A stretch of 64,000 bases of DNA from Deltaproteobacteria bacterium (GTDB lineage Bacteria; Desulfobacterota; Dissulfuribacteria; Dissulfuribacterales; JALVPX01): contig JALVVK010000127.1 of NCBI GenBank assembly GCA_027023445.1, positions 10,615 to 74,614 of the forward strand. Direction: 5' to 3'. The notes under the pieces were generated by a model. The model searched no databases. It was not told where the DNA came from and saw nothing but the letters and a program-made list of their open reading frames with translations. This document shows, piece after piece, positions 5,158 through 36,768 of the stretch; position 1 is the stretch's first letter; each line of letters begins with the position of its first letter. The translations under genes were made by a program, and so were the position numbers.

Positions 5158-7620
5158 TTATCCCGTGATAAACACGCAGTTTATCCTTGCCTTTTTCCGT
5201 TTCAATGCCCGGATAATACCGTATGCCATCCACAAAGAAGGTACAAGGAATATGACTATCGCGCGCCAGAATATCCGGGCCTGTGCCGACACCGGAGGTA
5301 TGAACCTCTGAATCTGGGTCTTGGATCTGACGTGAATAAGGTCATTACCCAGGGCCAGGGCGTCCACGCAGTTAAGTGCCAGGGTGGTGTTGTCCATGGC
5401 GTCTATGGCCGTATCAGTGAACATTTCCGAGCAACCGATTACAATCAGTTTGCCGCTTTTGGGCCTGGCAATTGATTGTTGCCCGGTTTCAGCCGTTTTA
5501 GCCTGATCTGCGCCAGTTTTTTCCCCTTTCTTTTTCTTTCCAGATGAAGGCCATGGCGGCACGGGCTTCCCCTCAAACGGATCGGGGAATATCCCCTCCA
5601 CGTACAGGGCAAGTGGCCTTGCTCCCATCTTGTCCCTCCCCGGCGGGATAAAGTCCTGTTGGGAAAGGTTTCCCGGATGATAAGGTACCTCCCAGCTTGC
5701 GGGGCTGGATTTGAACAGGGTTGTGACCTTAATGCCAAGTTTATTTATCTTTTTGTGGTCTTGCCTGAGTGCAGAGCCCCATAGATAAAGCAGGCCCTGG
5801 ACCCTGTTGGTCACGGAAAAATCCTGATTCATCTGGTCAGAGAGAACCTGTATCTGCATTGGATAGTTTACCGGGGTCTGAACCATGGCAGTGAACATGC
5901 CCATGCGCTGAGTGCTTGTTATCCGGAGCGGAATGTGCCGTTGGTCAAAAAGCATATCTTTGCTTATCTTCAGTCCGAGAGGCGATATAAGCCGGTTTAC
6001 TTGGTCTATGGGGACCTGCCGCGGGGTTACAGTGATTCCTCCCTCTGAATCCTCATTATATGCGTACTTCAGGGCCTGGGCGGCCAGTATGACAGATCCT
6101 CCCGACCTCAAAAAACGATATATCTCATAGCGCTGCCGCTCATTCAGCCTCTCAGGGGACAGGATAAAAAGCAGGCTTGTGTCCTTGGGAAGGGGATGAT
6201 TCTTATCAATGCCCCGCCTTACCACCTGGTACCCTTCACCATTTAATATCTGAATCAGCGTCTGGTAGTCATAGGAAGGCGGTACAGCGCGCCCCATCTG
6301 CTGCAAAAACATCAGAGTTTGAGGATTGAGTTCACGGTGGGGCGCCCAGATTACCACCTTTGGTTTGTGGTCCAGGATAAGGCGATATATCTTTGAGGCA
6401 AGTTCGTATTCCAGGTTACCCAGGGACTCCGGTACTACCTGGGGTACGATCTCCTCCTTTTTATCCAGATAGGCCAGAGAAATGGATGAATAAATCCGTT
6501 TTATATTGACCGTGTCCTGTTCGATGGTCTGGGCGCTGAAGGGAACGATACCCTTCTTTTGAAGATCCGGGATTTTATCCGGTATCTTCATCGGGTCCAC
6601 CACCCTGAAAATGAATTTGGGAGACAAACGTGCCAGTTCTTCCATAATATCTTTTACATCCCGTGCTATATCCTTCATGGGAGTGGGCAGCCGATCCCTG
6701 GAGGTAACATAATAGGTGACAATTATCGGGGCCTTGAGTTTTTTAAGGATCCTTTTTGTGCCGGCGGATATGGTATATAATTTTTCCTGAGTGAGGTCCG
6801 CCTTCGGGAGGGATATGTTGCGGACAACGCCATTTACCAGCAAGGTAATGCCAATAAGGAGGGCGATACCCAGGCCTCCCCCCTTTGTTCTGCGCATCTT
6901 CAGCCGGCCTTCCAGGATAAATATATTTATGGCGAGAAACAGGATCGTGTAACTGAGGAAAAACAGGACATCCCCTGTATCAATAACTCCCTTTGCAAAG
7001 GAATTAAAATGGGAGGGGATGCCAACCGTGTCTTTCAGAAAGGTGCCGAACCCGGGCAGCCACCCGTCGATAAGGGATGGAGTAAAGTCCGTACCGAACA
7101 GGTAGCAGGCAAATCCGATTACGAGAGACAGGATAAACGCTACGATCTGGTCTGTGAAAAGGGCGGAAACCGCCATCCCCAGGGCCAGAAGTTCCGCGGT
7201 AAGTAACGTGATTCCCAGGTATCCACCCAGGATGGGGCCGGGGTCCGGGTTACCCAGGAATGCCAGCATTAATGGTATTGTCAAAGTACCCAGGGTAACC
7301 AGTATGGAGAATAGAAAGGCTGCCAGGAATTTCCCCAGGCATAATTCAGCGCTGCCCGCAGGCAGGCTGAAAAGCAGGGCCAATGTGCCGTTTTTCCTCT
7401 CCTCTGCCCACAGTCTCATGGTAAGCGCCGGTATAAACACGATAAGTATGAGGGGCACAGTGGAAAAGAAGCTTCTCATGCTGCACAGGCCGGAGAGAAA
7501 AAAGGTGGCCATGTATGTGCCACATGCCACAAGCAGAAAAACCACTGAAAACACGTAGGCCACGGGGGCGTTAAAATAGGCGGATATCTCCCTGCGGGCG
7601 ACAGTAATAATGTTTTTCAT
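5158..7620 (-). CDS. Fused ABC-2 type permease (GldF-like) plus GldG-like auxiliary domain
   Basis: 820 aa. The N-terminal ~240 aa are polytopic (MKNIITVARREISAYFNAPVAYVF..., typical ABC-2 permease start). The remaining ~570 aa form a large soluble GldG-like region that ends in a TM helix. Confidence 0.7.
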   Translation of the reverse strand: MKNIITVARREISAYFNAPVAYVFSVVFLLVACGTYMATFFLSGLCSMRSFFSTVPLILIVFIPALTMRLWAEERKNGTLALLFSLPAGSAELCLGKFLAAFLFSILVTLGTLTIPLMLAFLGNPDPGPILGGYLGITLLTAELLALGMAVSALFTDQIVAFILSLVIGFACYLFGTDFTPSLIDGWLPGFGTFLKDTVGIPSHFNSFAKGVIDTGDVLFFLSYTILFLAINIFILEGRLKMRRTKGGGLGIALLIGITLLVNGVVRNISLPKADLTQEKLYTISAGTKRILKKLKAPIIVTYYVTSRDRLPTPMKDIARDVKDIMEELARLSPKFIFRVVDPMKIPDKIPDLQKKGIVPFSAQTIEQDTVNIKRIYSSISLAYLDKKEEIVPQVVPESLGNLEYELASKIYRLILDHKPKVVIWAPHRELNPQTLMFLQQMGRAVPPSYDYQTLIQILNGEGYQVVRRGIDKNHPLPKDTSLLFILSPERLNERQRYEIYRFLRSGGSVILAAQALKYAYNEDSEGGITVTPRQVPIDQVNRLISPLGLKISKDMLFDQRHIPLRITSTQRMGMFTAMVQTPVNYPMQIQVLSDQMNQDFSVTNRVQGLLYLWGSALRQDHKKINKLGIKVTTLFKSSPASWEVPYHPGNLSQQDFIPPGRDKMGARPLALYVEGIFPDPFEGKPVPPWPSSGKKKKGEKTGADQAKTAETGQQSIARPKSGKLIVIGCSEMFTDTAIDAMDNTTLALNCVDALALGNDLIHVRSKTQIQRFIPPVSAQARIFWRAIVIFLVPSLWMAYGIIRALKRKKARINCVFITG

Positions 7621-9430: not shown

Positions 9431-9507
9431 CGGGACGTGGCGCAGTCTGGAAGCGCACCTGAATGGGGTTCAGGGGGCCGGAGGTTCAAATCCTCTCGTC
9501 CCGACCA
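9431..9507 (+). tRNA. tRNA-Pro (anticodon GGG)
   Basis: Hand-folded cloverleaf. Acceptor CGGGACG/CGTCCCG, D stem GCGC/GCGC, anticodon stem CCTGA/TCAGG with loop AT-GGG-GT, T stem GGAGG/CCTCT, loop TTCAAAT, encoded CCA. Confidence 0.9.
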
Positions 9508-26550: not shown

Positions 26551-28173
26551 TTAAAATAAACCGGCCAGCGAACCGGCCCCTTTTTCCCAAAGTATGAAAA
26601 GGAGACCACCGACCCCTGCGTAACAGGAAAATGCCAAAAGCCCGAGGCCTATGTTCTTAAAAAATTTCTTCCTTTTTTCATCCGGAGTCAGGACCAACGG
26701 AAGGCAGGCAACCATGGGAAGCTTCAGGGCCTTCGTGACCTCGTCAGGATCGTAAAAAGCCTTTGAGATAAATTCCAGCGCAAGAGCTGATCCGACCCCG
26801 GTGCCAAGGGCCAGGATCAGGGTCATGAGCAGGACCTTTTTGACATTCGGTTTTATCGGGGTCTCCGGCATACGTGCCGGATCAATCACCCTGAACTGCT
26901 CCCCCTCCTGCCTGCGTTCAAGGGCAGCGGCCTGTTCCGCCTCTATCTTCCGGGTAAGGAGATTATTATAGGTCTGCCTCAGGTTATTATAATCCCTGGT
27001 AATATCTATAAGCTCCTGTTCCCTCTTTGGAGTATCCTCAATCCGCTTTTTATAGACCTCTATCTGCTTTTTGATTTTTTTATTCTCTTCCTTCATTGCC
27101 TTGATTTCCATATCAAGGCTTTTGATCTGGTACCTGAGTCCAACGACAACCGCGTTCTGATACGGAGGTTCATCAGAAGAAGCCTCGTGCGATACCCCTG
27201 GAGCCTGGGTGCCATTCACTTGTCCGGCATGCCTATGTGCCTGTTCTTTTTCCAGCTTGGCGATAAGCTGTTTTGTGGCTATTACGTCCGGGTACTGTTC
27301 AGTGTACCTGGTCCTGAGATCCCTGAGTCGCTCTTTCAGGGACTCAAGCGTGACAGGAGCCCGGACACCGTCAGCATGCCCAGCGGCCTTGGCCAGACGG
27401 GTTGATGCCGCAAGACGCAGGTTGTTCTCTTCATCAGCCAGCTCGCGCTGTAACAGCAATTTTCTGTCCTCGGCTCTCCGGATGTCCTCCTGAAGTCCCT
27501 CCATCTGCTGGCCCAGGCGTTCCATCATGGCGATATTCGTGTCTCTCTGCTCAGGAAGCTCTCCCATGTGCTTCATCTTGTATTTTTTAAGGGCTTCCTC
27601 CCTTTCCTTAAGGCTTTTATAGACCTTCTCCAGTTGCTGCGCCAGAAACTCAGCCGTACTCTTGGCCTGGCTCTCTCTGAGCTTCAGATTCTCTTCGATA
27701 AACATGTTTGCAAGGGAGTTGCAGACCTTGGTGATGAGCACAGGATCCGTTCCTTCATAGGACAGGATAAAGGCGTTGTTTCTGTCGGTCCTCGGGCTCT
27801 CAATGCTGATCTTTTTCCGCATTAGCTCGACCACGGTCTCCATGGGATATTTTTCTCTCATGTCCGGGTAAAGGTTAAACTGCTGGATAAGCCTTTCCAG
27901 GGTGGTCCGGCTTATGACCTCCTGCCATATGCCCCGGATACGCTCCCGAACATTCCCTGTCACCGTGGAACGTACGTAATTTTCCGGCACCTTCTGGGGA
28001 ACCACCACAATGGTGGTACTCGTCTTGTATACCCTGGTGGCAACCAGGCAGTAGACAATCCCTGCGATAAGCAGGGGAACGGTGCCAAATATGATGACCC
28101 ATTTTCTTCTAAGGATCAGGGATAGATATCTATCCAGATCAAGCGGCTGTTGTTTTTCGGTCTCAGCGGCCAT
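26551..28173 (-). CDS. Polysaccharide chain-length determinant (Wzz/GumC-like, PCP family)
   Basis: N-terminal TM after LDLDRYLSLILRRKW, a long coiled-coil periplasmic region, and a C-terminal TM pair. Confidence 0.85.
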   Translation of the reverse strand: MAAETEKQQPLDLDRYLSLILRRKWVIIFGTVPLLIAGIVYCLVATRVYKTSTTIVVVPQKVPENYVRSTVTGNVRERIRGIWQEVISRTTLERLIQQFNLYPDMREKYPMETVVELMRKKISIESPRTDRNNAFILSYEGTDPVLITKVCNSLANMFIEENLKLRESQAKSTAEFLAQQLEKVYKSLKEREEALKKYKMKHMGELPEQRDTNIAMMERLGQQMEGLQEDIRRAEDRKLLLQRELADEENNLRLAASTRLAKAAGHADGVRAPVTLESLKERLRDLRTRYTEQYPDVIATKQLIAKLEKEQAHRHAGQVNGTQAPGVSHEASSDEPPYQNAVVVGLRYQIKSLDMEIKAMKEENKKIKKQIEVYKKRIEDTPKREQELIDITRDYNNLRQTYNNLLTRKIEAEQAAALERRQEGEQFRVIDPARMPETPIKPNVKKVLLMTLILALGTGVGSALALEFISKAFYDPDEVTKALKLPMVACLPLVLTPDEKRKKFFKNIGLGLLAFSCYAGVGGLLFILWEKGAGSLAGLF

Positions 28174-28177
28174 TATT

Positions 28178-29437
28178 TCATCTCCATTCGCGAGTAGCGG
28201 AAAGCCTGAAAAGTACCAGGGTATCCCTGAACTGGCTGTCCGCGTCCGATGAATACCTTTCCCTCTGCATCAGATTAAGGGAACAGGAAAGCCATGGCAG
28301 TATCCGATAGGAAACGCCCGCGGTTCCGCTCCAGAAATCATCCCGGGATGAGGTTATATCCCTGGATTCCTCATGATCATAGGAAATCATGGCATTCGTT
28401 GTTACGCTGGCGGAAAGTTTATATGTCCCGGAGAGGGACACGGACTTATAATCCGTGAATCCCCTTCTCTCCGCGTCGGTATATTCTCCCCTGGCTCCAC
28501 CGGTTCCGGAAAGGCTCAGGGAACCCCGCTCAAAGGTCCTGCTCAGGACAAGATTGTAAGAAATTCCCGTGTTATCCGGGGACGTCTGCTGCTGCCTTAC
28601 ATAATAACCCAGATGGGCACTGAGACTCATCACCTGGCTCAATGCCCGCTCTATGCCAAGGCTGCCGTTATGAACCCGGTAGTCATTATCCCCAGGCCCC
28701 TTATCTCTGAAAAGTTCCAGGCTGTAATCAATACTTAATGTAGTCCGGGGAGACCATCTGTACCGGTATCCGGCACCCATGGTATTTGTCTCCAGCGGAC
28801 TTGAGGTCTCAAAATCCGTTCTTCTCCACGCATAACTGAGACTGAGGCCATGCCTGTGACTGAACCAATAAGCCAGATTGATGCCAGGACCGTATTCATT
28901 GCTGTCCTCCACATCCGGGGCCTTGTTTTTGAGAAGGCTGTCTGAATATGTCATGGAAAGGCGGTCTTCCTCGCCAAAGACATATGAGAAACCGGTCTCA
29001 GCCGTATTTCTGTAATACCTGTTCCGGGTCTTCCTTACCGCTGTAATATGTGGATCCTGCTCTATGGGCTCTTCGCTCAGATAAAAGGTATCATTAAGCA
29101 GGAAGCTGAAACTACTGGAGAGCTGCTGATCAAGGCCCAGGTCAAAGGAATGCCCGATATAATTTTTCTCGGAGTAGCGCTTGAAATTGACCGAGTTAAG
29201 GGTGTAACGACCGTGCAGGGTTCTCGTTGCCCCTTCCTCCTCCAAACCCAAATTGAGGCCAACATCGGTTTCGAAATCAGACACCTCGTTGTCAGGCCTC
29301 AGATAAATATTGGAATCATAGCGCTCAGAGGCATCCAGCCCTGTGGTAACCCTTAATTCTGCCATGGTAAGGCCCTGAAACGAAAGCCAGATCGCAACAG
29401 CCAAAAAAACAGAAACCCAAAAGCCGGTCTTTGCCAT
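28178..29437 (-). CDS. EPS-locus outer-membrane beta-barrel protein
   Basis: Signal peptide, alternating beta-strand pattern throughout, and a C-terminal aromatic end (...LSATREWR). Its position between the export and chain-length genes matches the PEP-CTERM locus OMP. Confidence 0.65.
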   Translation of the reverse strand: MAKTGFWVSVFLAVAIWLSFQGLTMAELRVTTGLDASERYDSNIYLRPDNEVSDFETDVGLNLGLEEEGATRTLHGRYTLNSVNFKRYSEKNYIGHSFDLGLDQQLSSSFSFLLNDTFYLSEEPIEQDPHITAVRKTRNRYYRNTAETGFSYVFGEEDRLSMTYSDSLLKNKAPDVEDSNEYGPGINLAYWFSHRHGLSLSYAWRRTDFETSSPLETNTMGAGYRYRWSPRTTLSIDYSLELFRDKGPGDNDYRVHNGSLGIERALSQVMSLSAHLGYYVRQQQTSPDNTGISYNLVLSRTFERGSLSLSGTGGARGEYTDAERRGFTDYKSVSLSGTYKLSASVTTNAMISYDHEESRDITSSRDDFWSGTAGVSYRILPWLSCSLNLMQRERYSSDADSQFRDTLVLFRLSATREWR

Positions 29438-29454
29438 GACCCCCCCCGTTTGGC

Positions 29455-30099
29455 CTATGGAACTATGATTGTGTCCCCAGGCGCGAGCTCGATATTTGTA
29501 TCAAGGTCCTCTCCCCTTGACACCTTGCTGTAATTAAACCTGATTTTTCTTTGCCTGCCGTTTTCCATCCGTACTATGACGATGTTTTTTTCATCCGCCC
29601 ACTGGGCCAACCCGCCCGCAAGGGACAGGGCCTGAAGCACCGTAAGCCCATGGTGCAGTGGAAACTGGCCGGGGTTGTTTACCTTACCCATTATGTAAAT
29701 ATTTTTGCTGTGTATCTCCCGAACGGTCACTGAAACCGTGGGGTTGGACACATATCTGGAAAGGGCTTTTTCCAGCCGGGCTTTGAGCTGAAGGGGAGTC
29801 AGGCCGGCCGCGGTCACATCGTCCAGCAGGGGCAAGGTAATTTTCCCATCAGGCCTCACGGGAATAGTCCGTGAAAGATTGGGCTCTCGCCAGACCTGTA
29901 TTTCAAGCACATCTGACGGACCGATAATATAATGATTTACAGCCACCTGATTTTTCCGCACTTCTTTTTCGGGCGTCTGGGCGCATGTCAAAGTACACGC
30001 AACGCACAAAAGAAAGAGGGCTGAAATGGATATTGCGGCCGTCCAAAAACAGGACCCTGAATACCACGAAAAACAAAATTCACGAAGGTATGATCGCAT
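29455..30099 (-). CDS. Polysaccharide export protein (Wza/EpsA-like periplasmic component)
   Basis: Lipoprotein-like signal, YIIGPSDVLEIQVW (the PES motif region of Poly_export), and a SLBB-like C-terminus. Confidence 0.85.
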   Translation of the reverse strand: MRSYLREFCFSWYSGSCFWTAAISISALFLLCVACTLTCAQTPEKEVRKNQVAVNHYIIGPSDVLEIQVWREPNLSRTIPVRPDGKITLPLLDDVTAAGLTPLQLKARLEKALSRYVSNPTVSVTVREIHSKNIYIMGKVNNPGQFPLHHGLTVLQALSLAGGLAQWADEKNIVIVRMENGRQRKIRFNYSKVSRGEDLDTNIELAPGDTIIVP

Positions 30100-30102
30100 G
30101 AT

Positions 30103-30423
30103 TTATTTCCCCTCTCTGATACGGATCAGGTATTCCTCCCACTCGGCAGGCAGGAGGTACCTTTTCTTATTGTTACAGTCCTTGCAGGCAGGCACCAGAT
30201 TGCTCCTGATACTTTTTCCCCCTCTGCTCAGGGGGATGACATGGTCCATGGTCAACTGTGAAGGCCCGACCCTGCGCCTGCAGTAATGGCAGACGCCCCT
30301 GGCGCATTTATTTCTCCACCATCGGGTCTTCCTGAGCTCCCTTGCCTTGTTTTTTTCCCTCTGAATATCTTCTTCGTCAGATAGCGGGGAAAAATAGAAT
30401 TCTTTTTCAGAATGATGTTTCAC
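30103..30423 (-). CDS. Small HNH endonuclease
   Basis: 106 aa. CHYC...DHVIPLSRGG...NLVPACKDCNNKK is the HNH/zinc motif. GTG start. The stop lies 3 nt before the start of the export gene. Confidence 0.75.
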   Translation of the reverse strand: MKHHSEKEFYFSPLSDEEDIQREKNKARELRKTRWWRNKCARGVCHYCRRRVGPSQLTMDHVIPLSRGGKSIRSNLVPACKDCNNKKRYLLPAEWEEYLIRIREGK

Positions 30424-30504
30424 GGTTTAACAAACCCTGATTCCTTCTTGCGAACCCGGCAGGATTTTAAAAGGGTTCAAGGGGTAATTCCATTTGCTAT
30501 CTTT

Positions 30505-30590
30505 TTTCATGCACAGGAGCGCAAGACACCTCTTTGCATGAAAGTTTCGGGGATTTTTCCAACTTAACACCTAAAATAACCTAACACGCT
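30505..30590 (+). repeat. Family B repeat, hairpin plus TTAACAC module
   Basis: TTTCATGC (30505-30512) pairs with GCATGAAA (30536-30543). It is followed by AACTTAACACCTAAAATAACCTAACAC, which resembles 42054-42075. Confidence 0.6.
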
Positions 30591-30735
30591 ATAATTTTCC
30601 ATACGGATAATGCCGTTATTATCTTTATGAAGGGGCTATATCCATGGTAGAATTTCCAAAACCTCTGTAGAGGTATAAAAACTGTCAGGGAAATATTTAA
30701 ATATATCAGACAGGCCGTACGTTTGATCAACACGC

Positions 30736-31698
30736 ATGCATTCACCCATGTCATCTGAGCTGAACACGGATATAAACATACGCACGGGTTCCAGGGCCCT
30801 TTTGCTCAGGCAAAAGGTTCTTATGGAGGCCCTCCAGATCAATCTGCCGGGGATTTCGGGCAACGTCCGCCTCGCCCTGTCCATGTGTGCTGACGTTAAC
30901 ACCGGAGCAGCCGAACTTTCAGCTGCCCTGTTAAAAGATTATGCCATCACGCTGGCACTGATTAAACAGGCCCACTCCGCCTTTTTTTCCGTGGATAAGA
31001 CCGAGACATGTTCCATGCGCCATATTGTTGTCATGCTGGGCATGGACAACGTGACAAAAATTGTGCTTTCCTGTCCCAGACTGCCCTCTGAAGGGATTCA
31101 GGCAAGGAAATTCAAGCGAAGTCTTCTCGGGCACCTCATGGCCAGATCAGTAATGGCAGGTTTTATCGCCTGGAATATAGCTCCTGTATGGGAGGAAGAT
31201 CCAGGGAAAATGGCTGTGTGCGCCATGCTCTACAGCCTGGACGATATTGCCGTTGCCGCTGTTCGGCCCGGGGCCGCAAGGGTCCTGTGGGAGCTTCGTC
31301 ACGCGCCCAGAAACATGCAGAAGCTCTCCAGAAAAATGGTAGGGTGGAAACCCGGTGAACTGGGGATGGAGCTTGCTAAAAGGTGGAATCTGCCCAGACA
31401 GGTAAGATATTCCATAGCATTTAACGGACTGACACCATATAAACTCGACCCATCGACCTCGGTCATTACCCCTGTTACGGTTCACATAAACAGAGTATTA
31501 TTTTATGCGGGTCTTAAAAAACCCTATGCGGGCAGGAGACAGATGACCGAATGGAACGAGCTCAGGAACCTGGCCCGGGGCAGGGAAAAGCGCCTGGAAA
31601 AACTGTTTAAAAAGGGCCTGCTGAAATTCAGGGACGAGAACAGGTTCATGGCCGACATCATGTGGGAACAAGGCATGCTGGAAAACATGCTTATCTGA
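30736..31698 (+). CDS. HDOD-domain signalling protein
   Basis: 320 aa. LPGISGNVRLALSMCADVNTGAAELSAALLKDYAITLALIKQAHSAFF...IVVMLGMDNV follows the HDOD pattern. Confidence 0.65.
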   Translation: MHSPMSSELNTDINIRTGSRALLLRQKVLMEALQINLPGISGNVRLALSMCADVNTGAAELSAALLKDYAITLALIKQAHSAFFSVDKTETCSMRHIVVMLGMDNVTKIVLSCPRLPSEGIQARKFKRSLLGHLMARSVMAGFIAWNIAPVWEEDPGKMAVCAMLYSLDDIAVAAVRPGAARVLWELRHAPRNMQKLSRKMVGWKPGELGMELAKRWNLPRQVRYSIAFNGLTPYKLDPSTSVITPVTVHINRVLFYAGLKKPYAGRRQMTEWNELRNLARGREKRLEKLFKKGLLKFRDENRFMADIMWEQGMLENMLI

Positions 31699-32534
31699 GT
31701 TGGATATTGAATTCCCGGAAACAGAAACAACTTGAAAAAATCCTTTTTGCCGCTCTTGGCCGAAGGCCCGATCTCTACGGGCTGGTCCTGGGACAGGGTG
31801 GTTGGATAACGTACAAGGCCCTTAGAAAGGCATTGATTCAGGAGCCAGGCCTGACAGGCCTGCGCCTTGCCGGAATCAAAAATTTTTTTATCGTCACGCG
31901 GCCTGAACGCTTTGAATGGAAAGATGAAAAGGTCAGGGTGAGGCCGGAATACCAGGTTCCGAAACTGTGGGAACCGGTCGAGGTGGAGCCTCCTGAACGG
32001 CTTTATTGTGCCATACGTCCTGCCGCTATTCCCCATGTCATGAAACACGGTCTTGGACACGTATCCAGACCCAGACAGCTTGTAATGGCAGCCGAAAGGG
32101 AACTTGCCCAAAGGATTGGCCGCATCAGGGGGCCGGATCTGCTGCCTGTAAGCGTTCTGGCCGGAAGGGCATGGAAGGCCGGCATCAGTTTTTTCGTCTC
32201 AGTCAAGGAATGTTTCCTGGCTGATCATGTCCCTCCTGAATTTCTTTTGCTCCCCCCGTTGCCAAAAGGACTTAAAAAAGCGGGGAAAAAGAATCCGGAC
32301 AAAAAAACGGACAAATCAGGCAAAAAGCCACAGAAAACCCAAAAACAGCATGTTCAAGACCAGGCGGGTTCCTTTATGTTGAGACCTGAACATTTGCTGG
32401 GTATGATACCGCCATCTGGCGCAGACGCCGAAAGGATGCGGGAAAAGGGGAAGTTTGAACGAAAAAAAAGACGAAAACGGGGCGGCAGAAAAAATAGAGC
32501 CGGAACGCCATTTGGGAAAAACACGTCAAAATAG
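31662..32534 (+). CDS. Tpt1/KptA (RNA 2'-phosphotransferase)-like protein with divergent active-site positions and a Lys/Arg-rich tail
   Basis: LEKILFAALGRRPDLYGLVLGQGGWITYKAL... and ...LYCAIRPAAIPHVMKHGLGHVSRPRQLVMAAERELAQRIG...FLADHVPPEFL run parallel to E. coli KptA over their whole length. The start is uncertain: GTG 31662, CTG 31695 or TTG 31707. Confidence 0.55.
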   Translation: MGTRHAGKHAYLSWILNSRKQKQLEKILFAALGRRPDLYGLVLGQGGWITYKALRKALIQEPGLTGLRLAGIKNFFIVTRPERFEWKDEKVRVRPEYQVPKLWEPVEVEPPERLYCAIRPAAIPHVMKHGLGHVSRPRQLVMAAERELAQRIGRIRGPDLLPVSVLAGRAWKAGISFFVSVKECFLADHVPPEFLLLPPLPKGLKKAGKKNPDKKTDKSGKKPQKTQKQHVQDQAGSFMLRPEHLLGMIPPSGADAERMREKGKFERKKRRKRGGRKNRAGTPFGKNTSK

Positions 32535-32541
32535 AAAACAC

Positions 32542-33963
32542 ATGAACGGCCTTGCAAAAATTATCTGCCTCTTTATGGCATTTTCCATTCTGTTTTCCTC
32601 GAGTGCTTCCGCGCTCATGTCCGTGGAGGAAGAGCGCCAGATGAGGGGCAAGCTTCTGCAGATGGTAAGAGCCAGGGCCAGCCTGATAAATGATCCTGAG
32701 GTAATAGAATATGTCTCGGACATAGGGCACAAAATACTGGCGCACGTGAAGAATCCCCTTTTCCACTATGAATTTTTCGTTATCCGGGACGAAGGGATGA
32801 ACGCTTTTGCCATGCCGGGAGGCCTTGTTTTCGTACACACAGGTCTTATTGAAAACATCGATTCGGAAAATGAACTTGCCTGTGTGCTGGCGCACGAAAT
32901 CGGCCATGTTCAGGGGCGCCATATAGCAAGAAGGATGGAGCGCATGAAAAGGGTAAACATAGCAAGCCTCGCTGTTGCCGTGGCAGGACTGTTCCTCGGA
33001 AGCGGCCAGGCCGAGTCTGCCATACTTGCCACAAGTGGCGCTCTCAGCGCCTCAATATCCCTCAAGTACAGCAGGGAAGATGAAGAAGAGGCAGACCGAA
33101 GGGCCTATCAGTGGCTGTGCGCAGCCGGATACGATCCAAGAGGGCTTGTAAGGGTACTGAAAAAGATGCGGAAATACCGCTGGCTTGGATCTGACTCCAT
33201 ACCCAGCTATCTTTCAACCCACCCCACCACACCTCAGAGGATAACCTACCTTGAAGATCTGTATAACAGGGATGTCTGTCCATTGAAGGTAAAGGAGGAC
33301 ACCTTTAGGCTAAAACGTATACAGATCAAGGTTACTGTCCTCAGCCACGATCCGGCTATGCTGGAAAAAAAATTTTCCCGGGAACTCAAATCGGACCCCA
33401 ATAATATTTTTATGCTTTTTGGCCTTGCCCAGTCCCTGCTGGCTGACAGAGAGTATGACAGGGCAATAGGCGTATATCAAAGGTTGATCGCCAAGGGACG
33501 CCAGGGCAAAAAATTTCTTCCTGACCTGGGATGGGCCTTTCTTGCCGCCGGCAGATACCAGGATGCGATAAATATTTTGCGTCCGTATGCAGAGGCGCAT
33601 CCAGGGGATTACAGCGTCCGTTATGGACTGGCAAAGGCATACCTGGAATTGAAAAGGCCGAATCAGGCATTATCGCTGTTAGAGGATATAAAGGACAAAC
33701 TATCCAATCAAAGCGAAATTGCCCTTCAGATGGGTCGTGCAATGGAGGAACTGGGCAGACTGGGAGAAGCCCACTATTATTTCTATCTTCATTACAGGGA
33801 GACAGGGAACATGATGTCTGCAAGGTTCCACAGGCAAAAGGCCCTGGAGTTATTGCCACGGGATAGCGTGCTTTATAAAAAATTGAAAAATAACATGCAT
33901 GCCCGGGAAGATGATCCAGGTGGGAAAATAAACGGGGGAAGGGATAGCGGAGGCACAAACTGA
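32542..33963 (+). CDS. M48 family zinc metallopeptidase with C-terminal TPR repeats (BepA/YfgC-like)
   Basis: Signal peptide, HEIGHV (HExxH), a downstream EEEADR, and a TPR region. I prefer the ATG at 32542. Confidence 0.85.
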   Translation: MNGLAKIICLFMAFSILFSSSASALMSVEEERQMRGKLLQMVRARASLINDPEVIEYVSDIGHKILAHVKNPLFHYEFFVIRDEGMNAFAMPGGLVFVHTGLIENIDSENELACVLAHEIGHVQGRHIARRMERMKRVNIASLAVAVAGLFLGSGQAESAILATSGALSASISLKYSREDEEEADRRAYQWLCAAGYDPRGLVRVLKKMRKYRWLGSDSIPSYLSTHPTTPQRITYLEDLYNRDVCPLKVKEDTFRLKRIQIKVTVLSHDPAMLEKKFSRELKSDPNNIFMLFGLAQSLLADREYDRAIGVYQRLIAKGRQGKKFLPDLGWAFLAAGRYQDAINILRPYAEAHPGDYSVRYGLAKAYLELKRPNQALSLLEDIKDKLSNQSEIALQMGRAMEELGRLGEAHYYFYLHYRETGNMMSARFHRQKALELLPRDSVLYKKLKNNMHAREDDPGGKINGGRDSGGTN

Positions 33964-34427
33964 TGAAATCTTTCTGGCTGGTGGCAATATGCGTGGCCCT
34001 TCTGGACCAGGCTGCCAAGGCCTTCATCGAAAGCACTTTTTACCTGCATGAACTTCATCAGGTCATACCGGGTCTTTTAAACCTCGTCTATGTAACCAAT
34101 ACCGGTGCAGCCTTTGGCCTCATGGCAGGGACTGAAACATGGCGGCATCTTTTTTTTCAGGCTGTAAGCGTCCTCGCCATGGGGGGTATAGCTTATCTAT
34201 ATTATGCCGCGCGGTCCGGCAGCAGGCTCCTGTTCTGGGGCTGTTCCCTGGTGTTCGGCGGGGCGCTTGGCAATCTGATCGACAGGATTCGCAACAGATA
34301 CGTTACGGACTACATCGACTTCCACGTTGGTTCCCACCACTGGCCGGCATTTAATCTGGCTGATTCCGCAATCACCATAGGCGCGGTCTGCCTGGCCCTG
34401 TTTTTTCTCCTTATGCCGGAGGATTAG
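33963..34427 (+). CDS. lspA: Lipoprotein signal peptidase II
   Basis: NTGAAFG, GGALGNLIDR and FNLADSAI motifs. The start overlaps the upstream stop (TGATG). Confidence 0.92.
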   Translation: MKSFWLVAICVALLDQAAKAFIESTFYLHELHQVIPGLLNLVYVTNTGAAFGLMAGTETWRHLFFQAVSVLAMGGIAYLYYAARSGSRLLFWGCSLVFGGALGNLIDRIRNRYVTDYIDFHVGSHHWPAFNLADSAITIGAVCLALFFLLMPED

Positions 34428-34649
34428 CCAGGAGTCAGCCTATTATCCCGGATTACGGCCTGTTTATCTATGGTTCCGTAAAAAGTCTTCCGTTACCCAA
34501 GGCGCAAGTCTTTCTCTTTTTGATAGCAAACAGGTTAAATCGATTTTGGTTTTTGGGCGCTTTAACAGGCAACCCACCTAAAATAATAAACAAAATCACT
34601 TGGGATATTTTTTAGGTCCCCGGTTGAGCAGAAAAATAAAAAAGGGGTC

Positions 34650-34702
34650 TTGCAATCAAAAAAAACGTGTTTATATTAGCACTCGCTATTGATGGGTGCT
34701 AA
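34650..34702 (+). promoter_or_regulatory. Sigma-70-type promoter (TTGCAA-N16/17-TATATT) overlapping a CIRCE operator (HrcA site)
   Basis: CIRCE at 34676-34702 reads TTAGCACTC-N9-GGGTGCTAA, against the consensus TTAGCACTC-N9-GAGTGCTAA. It lies 80 nt upstream of groES. Confidence 0.85.
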
Positions 34703-34782
34703 CAAAAGGTGGCCACCTCTTTGGATCTTATTTAATTTATTAAACAAAAAATAACCAAAATAAACAAAGGAGATTGAGGGCT

Positions 34783-35070
34783 ATGAAAATTCGTCCATTA
34801 CATGATCGCATTCTTGTCAAACGTCTGGAAGAAGAGGAAAAGACCAAGGGAGGCATCATTATCCCTGATTCCGCCAAGGAAAAACCCATTGAAGGCGAGG
34901 TGAAGGCCGTGGGAAACGGCAGGGTGCTCGATAATGGAGAGACAAGGCCCCTGGAGGTAAAGGAAGGGGATCGCATATTATTTGGGAAATATGCGGGCAC
35001 TGAGATCAAGATTGAGGGCGAAGAATTCCTGATGATGCGTGAAGATGATGTCCTTGGAATCATTGAATAA
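34783..35070 (+). CDS. groES: Co-chaperonin GroES
   Basis: [14 protein letters not shown]... 95 aa, AAGGAG RBS. Confidence 0.96.

Positions 35071-35094: not shown

Positions 35095-36768
<1,674 letters not shown>

Follow-up and report, generated by a model that had tools for sequence, protein, structure and literature searches.

A predicted pseudoenzyme of the Tpt1/KptA family and its relatives in sulfate-reducing Desulfobacterota

What does a Tpt1/KptA-like protein with altered catalytic residues do among genes for envelope protein processing? This question is raised by an open reading frame (ORF) in a 64,000-nucleotide (nt) stretch of DNA from a Deltaproteobacteria bacterium of the Dissulfuribacterales (contig JALVVK010000127.1, positions 10,615 to 74,614; the whole stretch is called the window here). 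The ORF lies at positions 31662 to 32534 of the window, between a gene for an HDOD protein and genes for an M48 peptidase and the lipoprotein signal peptidase LspA. Tpt1/KptA occurs in numerous bacteria in which 2'-phosphorylated RNA is not known, and its role there has been called a long-standing conundrum (PMC6333775). With moderate confidence, we read the window protein as a pseudoenzyme: a catalytically degenerate member of a lineage of long Tpt1 proteins that binds nucleic acid, probably RNA or tRNA, without catalysis. What we report as new is an apparent pseudoenzyme radiation within the known Tpt1/KptA family.

Fold and active site of the Tpt1-like protein

The first-pass annotation of the window had proposed a likeness to KptA across both lobes, and this was borne out by profile, sequence and structure comparisons. 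The NCBIfam models for RNA 2'-phosphotransferase matched with E = 1.6e-15 over model positions 2-178 of 182, at 57.4 bits against a cut-off of 239. When the protein was compared by phmmer with the PDB Tpt1 chains 6EDE, 6E3A, 8TG3, 1WFX and 7KW8, E-values ranged from 2.5e-9 to 1.7e-6. A profile of intact long Tpt1 proteins, described below, matched with E = 2.3e-37. Full-length homology is upheld by NCBIfam, the PDB chains and Foldseek; with Pfam PF01885 the score was 18.5 bits, under the gathering score of 26.

An AlphaFold2 model built from a 3-sequence alignment was unusable (predicted local distance difference test, pLDDT, 47.6), and a 122-sequence alignment was used instead. The resulting model had a mean pLDDT of 85.8, with values above 94 in each 10-residue block of residues 21-200 except 131-140 (87). 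The top 21 Foldseek matches in the PDB were all Tpt1/KptA, with probability 1.0, E-values down to 2e-13 and 174-204 aligned columns. Despite this probability, the superpositions gave TM-scores of about 0.5 and root-mean-square deviations of about 11 Å, which suggests that the lobes are probably oriented otherwise in the predicted model than in solved Tpt1 structures. Neither a signal peptide nor a membrane segment was found in the protein. These data indicate that the ORF encodes a full-length, two-lobe Tpt1/KptA homologue, although it stays under every curated cut-off. The features of its folded part are as follows.

31662 to 32534, plus strand: Tpt1-like ORF, 290 amino acids (aa) from GTG 31662 (NCBIfam NF002014, E = 1.6e-15)
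31707 to 32258, plus strand: two-lobe Tpt1 fold, residues 16-199, with an N-terminal winged-helix RNA lobe and a C-terminal NAD lobe resembling ADP-ribosyltransferases (ART)
31758 to 31766, plus strand: G33-R34-R35, replacing the catalytic Arg-His dipeptide R18-H19
31902 to 31919, plus strand: P81-E-R83-F-E-W, equivalent to K66-K-R68-Y-E of the reference enzyme CthTpt1; the tetrad Arg is kept and Lys66 is replaced by Pro
31929 to 31955, plus strand: K-V-R92-V-R-P-E-Y-Q, replacing K-I-R-A-L-Y-G-H-S; R92 is the non-tetrad R77, and Tyr80, a contact of the 2'-phosphate, is replaced by Pro95
32007 to 32015, plus strand: C116-A117-I118, replacing the H-G-T NAD+ motif, which contacts the adenosine ribose 2'-OH and the nicotinamide
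32067 to 32090, plus strand: R136-P-R138-Q-L-V141-M-A, replacing G-R121-Q-Y-V-H125-L-S; the second His of the H-H-h motif is replaced by Val

We audited the active site against Clostridium thermocellum Tpt1 (CthTpt1), using residue equivalences on which three independent alignments agreed (pairwise phmmer, a 155-sequence MAFFT alignment and an 8-sequence MAFFT alignment). The essential tetrad of CthTpt1 is Arg18-His19-Arg68-Arg121 (PMC6333775; PMC8120803). Lys66 and Tyr80 touch the transferred phosphate, and the NAD+ contacts include His101 and Thr103 of the HGT motif, Ile111, Arg139 and Arg140 (PMC6333775). In Pyrococcus Tpt1, nicotinamide riboside or nicotinamide mononucleotide is held by the His and Gly of the HGT motif and by the second His of the H-H-h motif (PMC10622864), a motif of the Tpt1 family described in PMC8120803. 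The equivalent residues in the window protein are listed here.

Arg18: Gly33, lost
His19: Arg34, changed
Lys66: Pro81, lost
Arg68: Arg83, kept
Tyr80: Pro95, lost
His101-Gly-Thr103: Cys116-Ala-Ile118, lost
Arg121: Arg136 (or Arg138), kept
His125: Val141, lost
Arg139: Ile155, lost
Arg140: Arg156, kept

The tetrad R-H-R-R reads G33-R34-R83-R136 (or R138) in the window protein, with two of its four residues kept. In the Arg cage around the NAD+ pyrophosphate (R121, R139, R140), R136 and R156 are retained and R139 has become I155. The substituted motifs LGRRPD, VRVRPEYQ and LYCAIRP, noted in the first-pass annotation, are all present and are conserved in orthologues, and two of the accompanying details need correction. 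The Arg-His pair had been described as losing its His; the His is indeed lost, but so is the Arg, which is Gly33. The Arg of VRVRPEYQ is kept, as had been stated, but not as a catalytic residue, since it corresponds to the non-tetrad Arg77 of CthTpt1; the third tetrad Arg is R83 in PERFEW. No corrected alignment restores R-H-R-R, and the description of the active site as degenerate stands.

The cost of such losses has been measured in RslTpt1. There, R16A (equivalent to Arg18 of CthTpt1) slows step 1 of the reaction 380-fold and step 2 710-fold, and changing two HGT residues at once (H99A-T101A) is lethal, with 4% of activity left (PMC6333775). Given these rate losses and this lethality, the canonical Tpt1 reaction is very unlikely in the window protein. 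Judged by its residues, the protein almost certainly cannot perform that reaction, and it probably does not carry out 5'-phosphate ADP-ribosylation either.

Outside the catalytic residues, the likeness to Tpt1/KptA (PF01885; CthTpt1 6E3A/6EDE, Aeropyrum pernix 1WFX/8TG3, Thermococcus KptA 9LD4) extends to the two-lobe architecture over about 175 residues. The structural positions in common are L-x-K-x-L, P36, Y/F-G-L, G-W/F, E85, R92 and PP-x-LY, together with G130-L, L142, A149, G153 and G174-x-x-F. Unlike Tpt1/KptA, the window protein lacks Arg18, His19, Lys66, Tyr80, the HGT motif and the second His of H-H-h, and unlike the 180-aa KptA proteins it has a 91-aa basic C-terminal extension. It resembles PARP13/ZAP, an ART-fold pseudoenzyme that has lost its NAD+-binding triad and is an RNA-binding protein. 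However, PARP13/ZAP is eukaryotic, belongs to the unrelated PARP (H-Y-E) clade of ART proteins, and binds RNA through separate zinc fingers rather than through a winged-helix lobe and a basic tail.

The basic tail and a family of long Tpt1 proteins

Is the window protein an isolated oddity? A word-indexed search returned three relatives only, all with identical substitutions. When 1.84 billion cluster representatives were searched exhaustively with a profile, 1783 matched at E<=1e-3, of which 594 reached E<=1e-10. Nearly all of the best 150 are 240-270 aa long and consist of a Tpt1 domain and a tail of median length 68 aa, almost all without the catalytic residues. PF01885 is detected in 119 of 122 relatives at E<=0.01.

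Conservation was counted over 153 family sequences within an alignment of 155 sequences. The position of Arg18 is Gly in 103 of them; at that of His19, 86 have Arg and 25 have His. There is no conservation at the position of Arg68, where P occurs in 43, R in 20 and G in 18, most members having lost the Arg that the window protein keeps, and the position of Arg121 is variable (G/R/H). The His of the HGT motif is replaced by T, I, A, V, F or C across the family, and the second His by Val or Ile. Positions without a catalytic role are held far more firmly. P36 and G130 are invariant and L142 is strongly conserved; R92 is found in 148, R119 in 139 and R155 in 142. This last residue, the equivalent of Arg139, is nevertheless Ile in the window protein. 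K26 corresponds to Lys11, an RNA contact, and 142 sequences have K or R there; the adenine-binding loop G130-L-x-P is kept family-wide.

The polybasic tail noted in the first-pass annotation is present at residues 200-290, and its features are these.

32259 to 32531, plus strand: C-terminal extension, residues 200-290 (91 aa), 32% Lys+Arg, net charge +21, isoelectric point (pI) 11.2
32367 to 32375, plus strand: G236-S237-F238, the P-G-S-F tail motif of the family
32421 to 32498, plus strand: predicted basic helix, residues 254-279, ADAERMREKGKFERKKRRKRGGRKNR, equivalent to the W-K-R-x-R-R motif of the family, with W-K replaced by F-E here

The pI of the whole protein is 10.6. The tail begins with a Lys-rich disordered linker, continues with the G-S-F motif and ends in the basic helix; pLDDT is 53-59 between residues 211 and 240 and rises to 82-87 between residues 241 and 270. 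The long Lys-rich linker is confined to the sub-clade of the window protein, and PGSF and WK are the family-wide features of the tail. In the P-G-S-F motif, G is found in 135 of the 153 sequences, S in 110 and F in 105; in the basic helix, Trp is found in 109 and Lys in 110. Just after the G-S-F motif, codon 239 (32376-32378) encodes Met in the window (SFMLRP) and Val in protein P0001 of the matching NCBI assembly contig, L001 (SFVLRP), so that the two sequences differ by at least this one ATG/GTG substitution.

The best 150 matches also contained a protein, P0020, with both a complete active site and a basic tail, to which the window protein is 33% identical. A search with P0020 returned 656 clusters of about 243-248 aa at E<=1e-10. 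Records of this type are named RNA 2'-phosphotransferase at NCBI and JGI and come from metagenome-assembled genomes of Deltaproteobacteria, Desulfobacterales or Ca. Desulfofervidaceae. Among the 120 closest relatives of P0020, 61 have an intact R-H-R-R and H-T-H together with the tail motifs LPGS[VF] and TWKDxSRRxR; others of these 120 show partial loss, such as Q-H-R-R with Q-A-L. The window protein shares with the intact long Tpt1 the lineage motifs RPDEFGLV and GPP-x-x-K and a homologous tail with PGS[VF] and a basic W-K helix. In the window protein this is seen as an LLPPLPK junction (GPP-x-P-K in the lineage), AGSF and the basic helix. Unlike the window protein, the intact long Tpt1 retain R-H-R-R, YGHS, YHGT, GRQYVHL and RRRD, and they have another genomic context.

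Aligned by hhalign, the degenerate family and 31 intact long Tpt1 matched with a probability of 100% and E = 2.7e-76 over 241 columns, with the PGSF and W-K motifs in register. A crude ordering by neighbour joining runs from short canonical Tpt1 through intact long and partly degenerate to fully degenerate proteins, with the clade of the window protein in the last group. Because intact long Tpt1 enzymes carry a homologous tail, the tail appears to predate the loss of catalysis: the alignments indicate that the tail came first and that catalysis was lost later. Rather than an addition particular to degenerate members, the tail is an ancestral, motif-bearing extension also found on intact long Tpt1.

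The carriers are nearly all Desulfobacterota/Thermodesulfobacteriota, including Desulfobacterales, Desulfosarcinaceae, Desulfatibacillum, Desulfonema, Desulfobacca, Syntrophales and Thermodesulfobacteriales, and the cultured Thermodesulfatator autotrophicus S606 is among them (L036, NZ_LSFI01000012.1). In a pattern scan with one genome per species, 184 genomes encode relatives with LGRRPD[EA]FG, a survey that was seeded by the motif-homogeneous alignment subset A4 and is biased toward proteins with this motif. Some members are named 'putative RNA 2'-phosphotransferase' at JGI. We found no description of the degenerate Tpt1 clade in the literature searched, the coverage of which is incomplete, so this is absence of evidence only. 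Taken together, sequence comparison indicates that the degenerate Tpt1 proteins are a large family under selection, mostly in sulfate-reducing Desulfobacterota.

Gene neighbourhoods in the window and in related genomes

The tight packing of the Tpt1-like gene with its neighbours had been noted and is confirmed here. The genes around it are listed below.

30103 to 30423, minus strand: small HNH endonuclease gene, 106 aa, divergent (PF01844, E = 1.5e-14)
30736 to 31698, plus strand: stand-alone HDOD gene, 320 aa from the first ATG (PF08668, E = 2.1e-20, 73.5 bits against a cut-off of 22.9)
32542 to 33963, plus strand: M48 zinc metallopeptidase with C-terminal TPR repeats, periplasmic, BepA-like (PF01435, E = 1.7e-37; several TPR families)
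33963 to 34427, plus strand: lspA, lipoprotein signal peptidase II (TIGR00077, 111.4 bits against a cut-off of 73.95; PF01252, E = 2.9e-42)
34783 to 35070: groES, downstream of lspA
35113 to 36768: groEL, downstream of lspA

If GTG 31662 is used as the start, the Tpt1-like ORF overlaps the HDOD gene by 37 nt. The N-termini of the family align to codon 15/16 of the ORF, and codon 16 is TTG 31707, 8 nt past the HDOD stop, which would give a 275-aa product. Since homologues begin at the equivalent of codon 16, TTG 31707 is the likelier start, and we consider it the probable true one. The deposited 246-aa orthologue P0002 is also mis-started, with an in-frame 262-aa ORF opening 7 nt past its HDOD gene. 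Gene callers place the start of the window's HDOD gene at 30748, for a product of 316 aa.

A 7-nt spacer separates the Tpt1-like ORF from the ATG of the M48 gene, and the stop codon of the M48 gene shares one base with the ATG of lspA (TGATG). The M48/TPR peptidase starts at ATG 32542 and has an N-terminal signal peptide, MNGLAKIICLFMAFSILFSSSASA, and a HEIGH motif (HExxH). It matches the NCBIfam BepA model with E = 1.7e-66 and 225 bits. As this is under the equivalog cut-off of 570, we call the gene BepA-like and not proven BepA. These downstream genes match envelope-maintenance families, the BepA-type M48/TPR proteases and LspA. Outside one sub-clade, the Tpt1-like proteins show no family-wide association with such genes.

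How far does this arrangement extend? We tested the linkage by tblastn of the window's neighbour proteins against 80 related genomes. Adjacency of the Tpt1-like gene to M48, to HDOD or to both was found at about 8 loci, all of the window's own sub-clade. The full order of HDOD, Tpt1-like, M48/TPR, LspA and groESL occurs in two other assemblies, in which the Tpt1-like proteins are 61% and 52% identical to that of the window; in one of the two, the upstream flank differs. In L005, L088, L089 and L090/L091, the Tpt1-like gene is immediately preceded by HDOD; the gap is 172 nt in L089 and 7-15 nt in L005, L088 and L090. An M48 gene lies directly downstream in 7 related loci. L089 has HDOD, Tpt1-like and M48 in this order, at 36% identity. 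In L092, the Tpt1-like gene overlaps M48 by 4 nt. L007 and L008 have HNH (minus strand), Tpt1-like, M48 and LspA, and in L090 HDOD and Tpt1-like are followed by ArsR and MMPL in place of M48. The HNH gene recurs upstream, in matching position and orientation, in L005, L007, L008, L059 and L090. Between the window and L088, identity is 52% for the Tpt1-like protein, 55% for HDOD, 67% for M48, 72% for LspA, 93% for GroES and 94% for GroEL.

The HDOD, M48 and LspA neighbours were absent from all other loci among the genomes surveyed. We therefore reject an envelope-processing function as a property of the family, the linkage being found in the closest relatives only. The envelope-processing operon of the first-pass annotation holds for the roughly 8 loci of the sub-clade and not for the family at large. 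Within the sub-clade, the linkage to HDOD, M48/TPR and LspA is real, but it is lineage-specific and does not define the function of the family. The Tpt1-like gene is putatively co-transcribed there with HDOD, M48/TPR and LspA and may also be translationally coupled to them.

Elsewhere in the family the neighbours are different. A divergent hemL lies upstream of the Tpt1-like gene in at least 32 loci, and a divergent rpoD takes this place in Thermodesulfobacteriales. In at least 35 of the 77 loci with enough downstream sequence, a gene for tRNA-Lys(CUU) follows on the same strand, a median of 95 nt (range 54-607) past the Tpt1-like stop; these loci are within L011-L085 (for example L025:6800-6876, L035:6798-6874 and L085:6927-7003). 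The Tpt1-like proteins of the tRNA-Lys loci are 38-90% identical to one another (median 46%, 19 clusters at 60% identity), and the gene beyond the tRNA varies between loci. This divergence and this variability suggest that the tRNA-Lys pairing has outlived considerable divergence and rearrangement.

About 14 loci have a flgM-like gene, the Tpt1-like gene, an optional 758-aa ORF of unknown function, a gene for the CCA-adding enzyme and one for a ClpX-like ATPase. The CCA-adding enzyme (PolyA_pol + HD) is encoded downstream of the Tpt1-like gene either directly, with gaps of 22-352 nt, or past the 758-aa ORF, which is conserved and has no Pfam match. At the CCA-enzyme loci (L012, L013, L015, L016, L021, L022, L027, L029-L031, L033, L037 and L073), the CCA-enzyme gene is followed by an opposite-strand tRNA-Arg(CCG) and the ClpX-like AAA+ gene, while the upstream side has flgM-like genes and genes of unknown function encoding 139 aa.

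Intact long Tpt1 genes are found in the order panBCD, a 123-aa ORF, Tpt1 and DUF1844. The flanking ORF, 123-127 aa long, is conserved, contains Cys, has no Pfam match and lies 1 nt before Tpt1; the DUF1844 gene comes after it (L093:5628-5999 and 6781-7188; L095:5616-5999 and 6773-7201). The 123-127-aa ORF and the DUF1844 gene may form a functional module with active long Tpt1. Near degenerate Tpt1-like genes, neither of them has a counterpart.

In the window, promoter and terminator scans of 30300-34850 gave nothing better than shuffled controls, with the exception of the groES promoter. This is a promoter-like site (TTGCAA-16-TATATT) followed by a CIRCE-type inverted repeat, TTAGCACTC-N9-GGGTGCTAA (34676-34702), within region 34650-34702 upstream of groES. 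The repeat suggests HrcA-type heat-shock control. Since groES-groEL have their own promoter-like site and CIRCE-type repeat, the four-gene unit would end at lspA. No RNA element was found at the locus by Rfam, the only hit being tRNA-Pro(GGG) at 9431-9507, 22 kb away, and the window contains no second Tpt1-like ORF.

The HNH gene sits between the HDOD gene and a polysaccharide export and chain-length cluster on the opposite strand (26551-30099, minus strand, and further upstream). Its members include a Wzz/GNVR protein (540 aa), a predicted outer-membrane beta-barrel of 419 aa and a Wza-like Poly_export/SLBB protein (214 aa). In L001, the cluster continues with an AAA_22 ATPase, a Bac_transf sugar transferase and GlmS; it is kept in L005 and in part in L007 and L008. 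An ART fold next to an HNH gene can also be read as a defence or conflict system. This reading was rejected for lack of PADLOC support: the Tpt1-like, HDOD and M48 proteins had no PADLOC match, and the HNH protein had generic HNH matches only.

What the Tpt1-like protein may bind

What, then, is left for such a protein to do? As the residues for the 2'-phosphate and NAD+ have been discarded, and the Lys of the RNA lobe, several cleft arginines and the tail have been kept, the likeliest activity of the protein is to bind nucleic acid and leave it unmodified. Judging from its ancestry and from the tRNA-Lys and CCA-enzyme genes found beside its relatives, our best guess for the ligand is RNA or tRNA.

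The comparisons indicate the following history. The ancestor was a normal NAD+-dependent RNA 2'-phosphotransferase that gained a C-terminal extension of about 65 aa with the P-G-S-F/V motif and the W-K-rich basic helix. In a large radiation of descendants, the window protein included, selection has retained the fold and the tail. The residues gripping the 2'-phosphate have been replaced, in the window protein Arg18 by Gly, Lys66 by Pro and Tyr80 by Pro, with R83 kept as the equivalent of Arg68. The same holds for those that hold and strain NAD+, namely the HGT motif and the second His of H-H-h. The descendants may still bind a phosphate-rich polyanion, most likely RNA and plausibly tRNA, with the basic cleft residues K26, R34/R35, R83, R92, R119, R136/R138 and R156 acting together with the +21 tail. 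Such a protein would be a non-catalytic binder, chaperone or reader rather than an enzyme.

Several points weigh against this proposal. RNA binding by the window protein is something that we infer. At its own locus, the window protein's gene has neither tRNA-Lys nor cca beside it, and where this adjacency occurs it could be synteny inherited among related orders. Nor does the proposal account for the conserved coupling to M48/TPR and HDOD within the sub-clade. In addition, the adenine loop G130-L-x-P and the Arg139/Arg140 cage are conserved family-wide, and an adenine-nucleotide or ADP-ribose-like ligand could bind there.

This last point invites the idea of a ligand sensor. The dead ART lobe would bind ADP-ribose, NAD(P) or another adenine nucleotide and, with HDOD (a degenerate HD-type protein), form a cytoplasmic signalling pair that tunes the expression or activity of the envelope-maintenance genes M48/TPR and lspA. 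The recurrence of the HDOD and Tpt1-like pair in the sub-clade, even where ArsR-MMPL replaces M48, speaks for it, as do the persistence of the M48 coupling with differing upstream flanks, including the 4-nt overlap in L092, and the family-wide conservation of the main-chain adenine loop and a phosphate-cage Arg. We nevertheless consider a sensor improbable. HDOD and M48 are missing from loci outside the sub-clade, one cage Arg is Ile155 in the window protein itself, a +21 tail is unexpected for a small-molecule sensor, and nothing matched known signalling or defence systems.

The Lys-rich tail on a winged helix fits DNA binding equally well, and the protein might be a nucleoid-associated one in which the winged-helix lobe and a tail resembling histone H1 (KKAGKKNPDKKTDKSGKKPQK) bind, compact or mark DNA. 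The composition and pI of the tail and the winged-helix N-lobe (PMC8120803) are consistent with this. Tpt1/KptA also accept 5'-phosphorylated DNA, and the TkoKptA-DNA structures 9LD6 and 9LDA are among the Foldseek matches. However, what is conserved in the tail is PGSF and WK and not Lys/Ala/Pro repeats, and the Lys-rich linker is peculiar to the window's sub-clade. The natural substrate of the parent enzyme is RNA, and synteny elsewhere points to tRNA. We give the DNA-binding role little credence.

A third possibility is an enzyme with a re-wired site (R34/R35, R83, R136/R138) that carries out phosphotransfer or ADP-ribosylation with NAD+ bound non-canonically or with another nucleotide donor. 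Two tetrad arginines are kept and an Arg takes the place of the His, so that with the extra arginines at 34 and 35 such a site stays narrowly conceivable and counts against our proposal. The adenine loop G-L-x-P and R156, the Arg140 equivalent, are retained as well, and intact and partly degenerate relatives form a continuum. Against these stand the Gly in place of an Arg without which the reaction slows 380- to 710-fold, and the C, I and V found instead of the two HGT residues that donate H-bonds and of the second H-H-h His; a double mutant in HGT is dead. The substituted positions are moreover variable and not re-fixed (T/I/A/V/F/C at 101, P/R/G at 68, G/R/H at 121). This variability argues for relaxed constraint and not for a new catalytic constellation, and we regard a re-wired enzyme as quite unlikely.

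It is highly improbable that the gene is a decaying, functionless relic of a former kptA: catalytic residues have been lost and the protein diverges faster than its neighbours between the window and L088, but no interrupted reading frame occurs among the loci examined, length, fold and dozens of positions including the tail motifs are maintained across hundreds of diverged members, and the fold is predicted with high confidence.

The preferred reading, a non-catalytic nucleic-acid binder, can be extended into a broader proposal, which we regard as tentative and, taken as a whole, doubtful. In this proposal, dead Tpt1 would have been repurposed in a phylum-wide radiation of non-catalytic tRNA-binding factors, whose ancestral tail and RNA lobe would continue to recognise tRNA, in keeping with the tRNA-Lys(CUU) gene downstream in many genomes and the adjacent CCA-adding enzyme in others. 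In the window's sub-clade, such a factor would have become linked to envelope-protease genes and to HDOD as a partner.

For the window itself, the annotation is corrected to a non-catalytic Tpt1-like protein whose linkage to HDOD, M48-TPR and LspA, putatively co-transcribed, belongs to one lineage only. The label 'putative RNA 2'-phosphotransferase' on members of the family is very probably wrong, which amounts to systematic mis-annotation. As binding by the tail and the RNA lobe appears to have been worth retaining after catalysis was lost, knowing the ligand could show which substrates the long Tpt1 enzymes of bacteria use. Given the tRNA-Lys(CUU) and CCA-enzyme genes that recur nearby, tRNA is the obvious candidate. 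If the family members are indeed tRNA factors, they would hint at the class of natural substrates that has long been sought for bacterial Tpt1.

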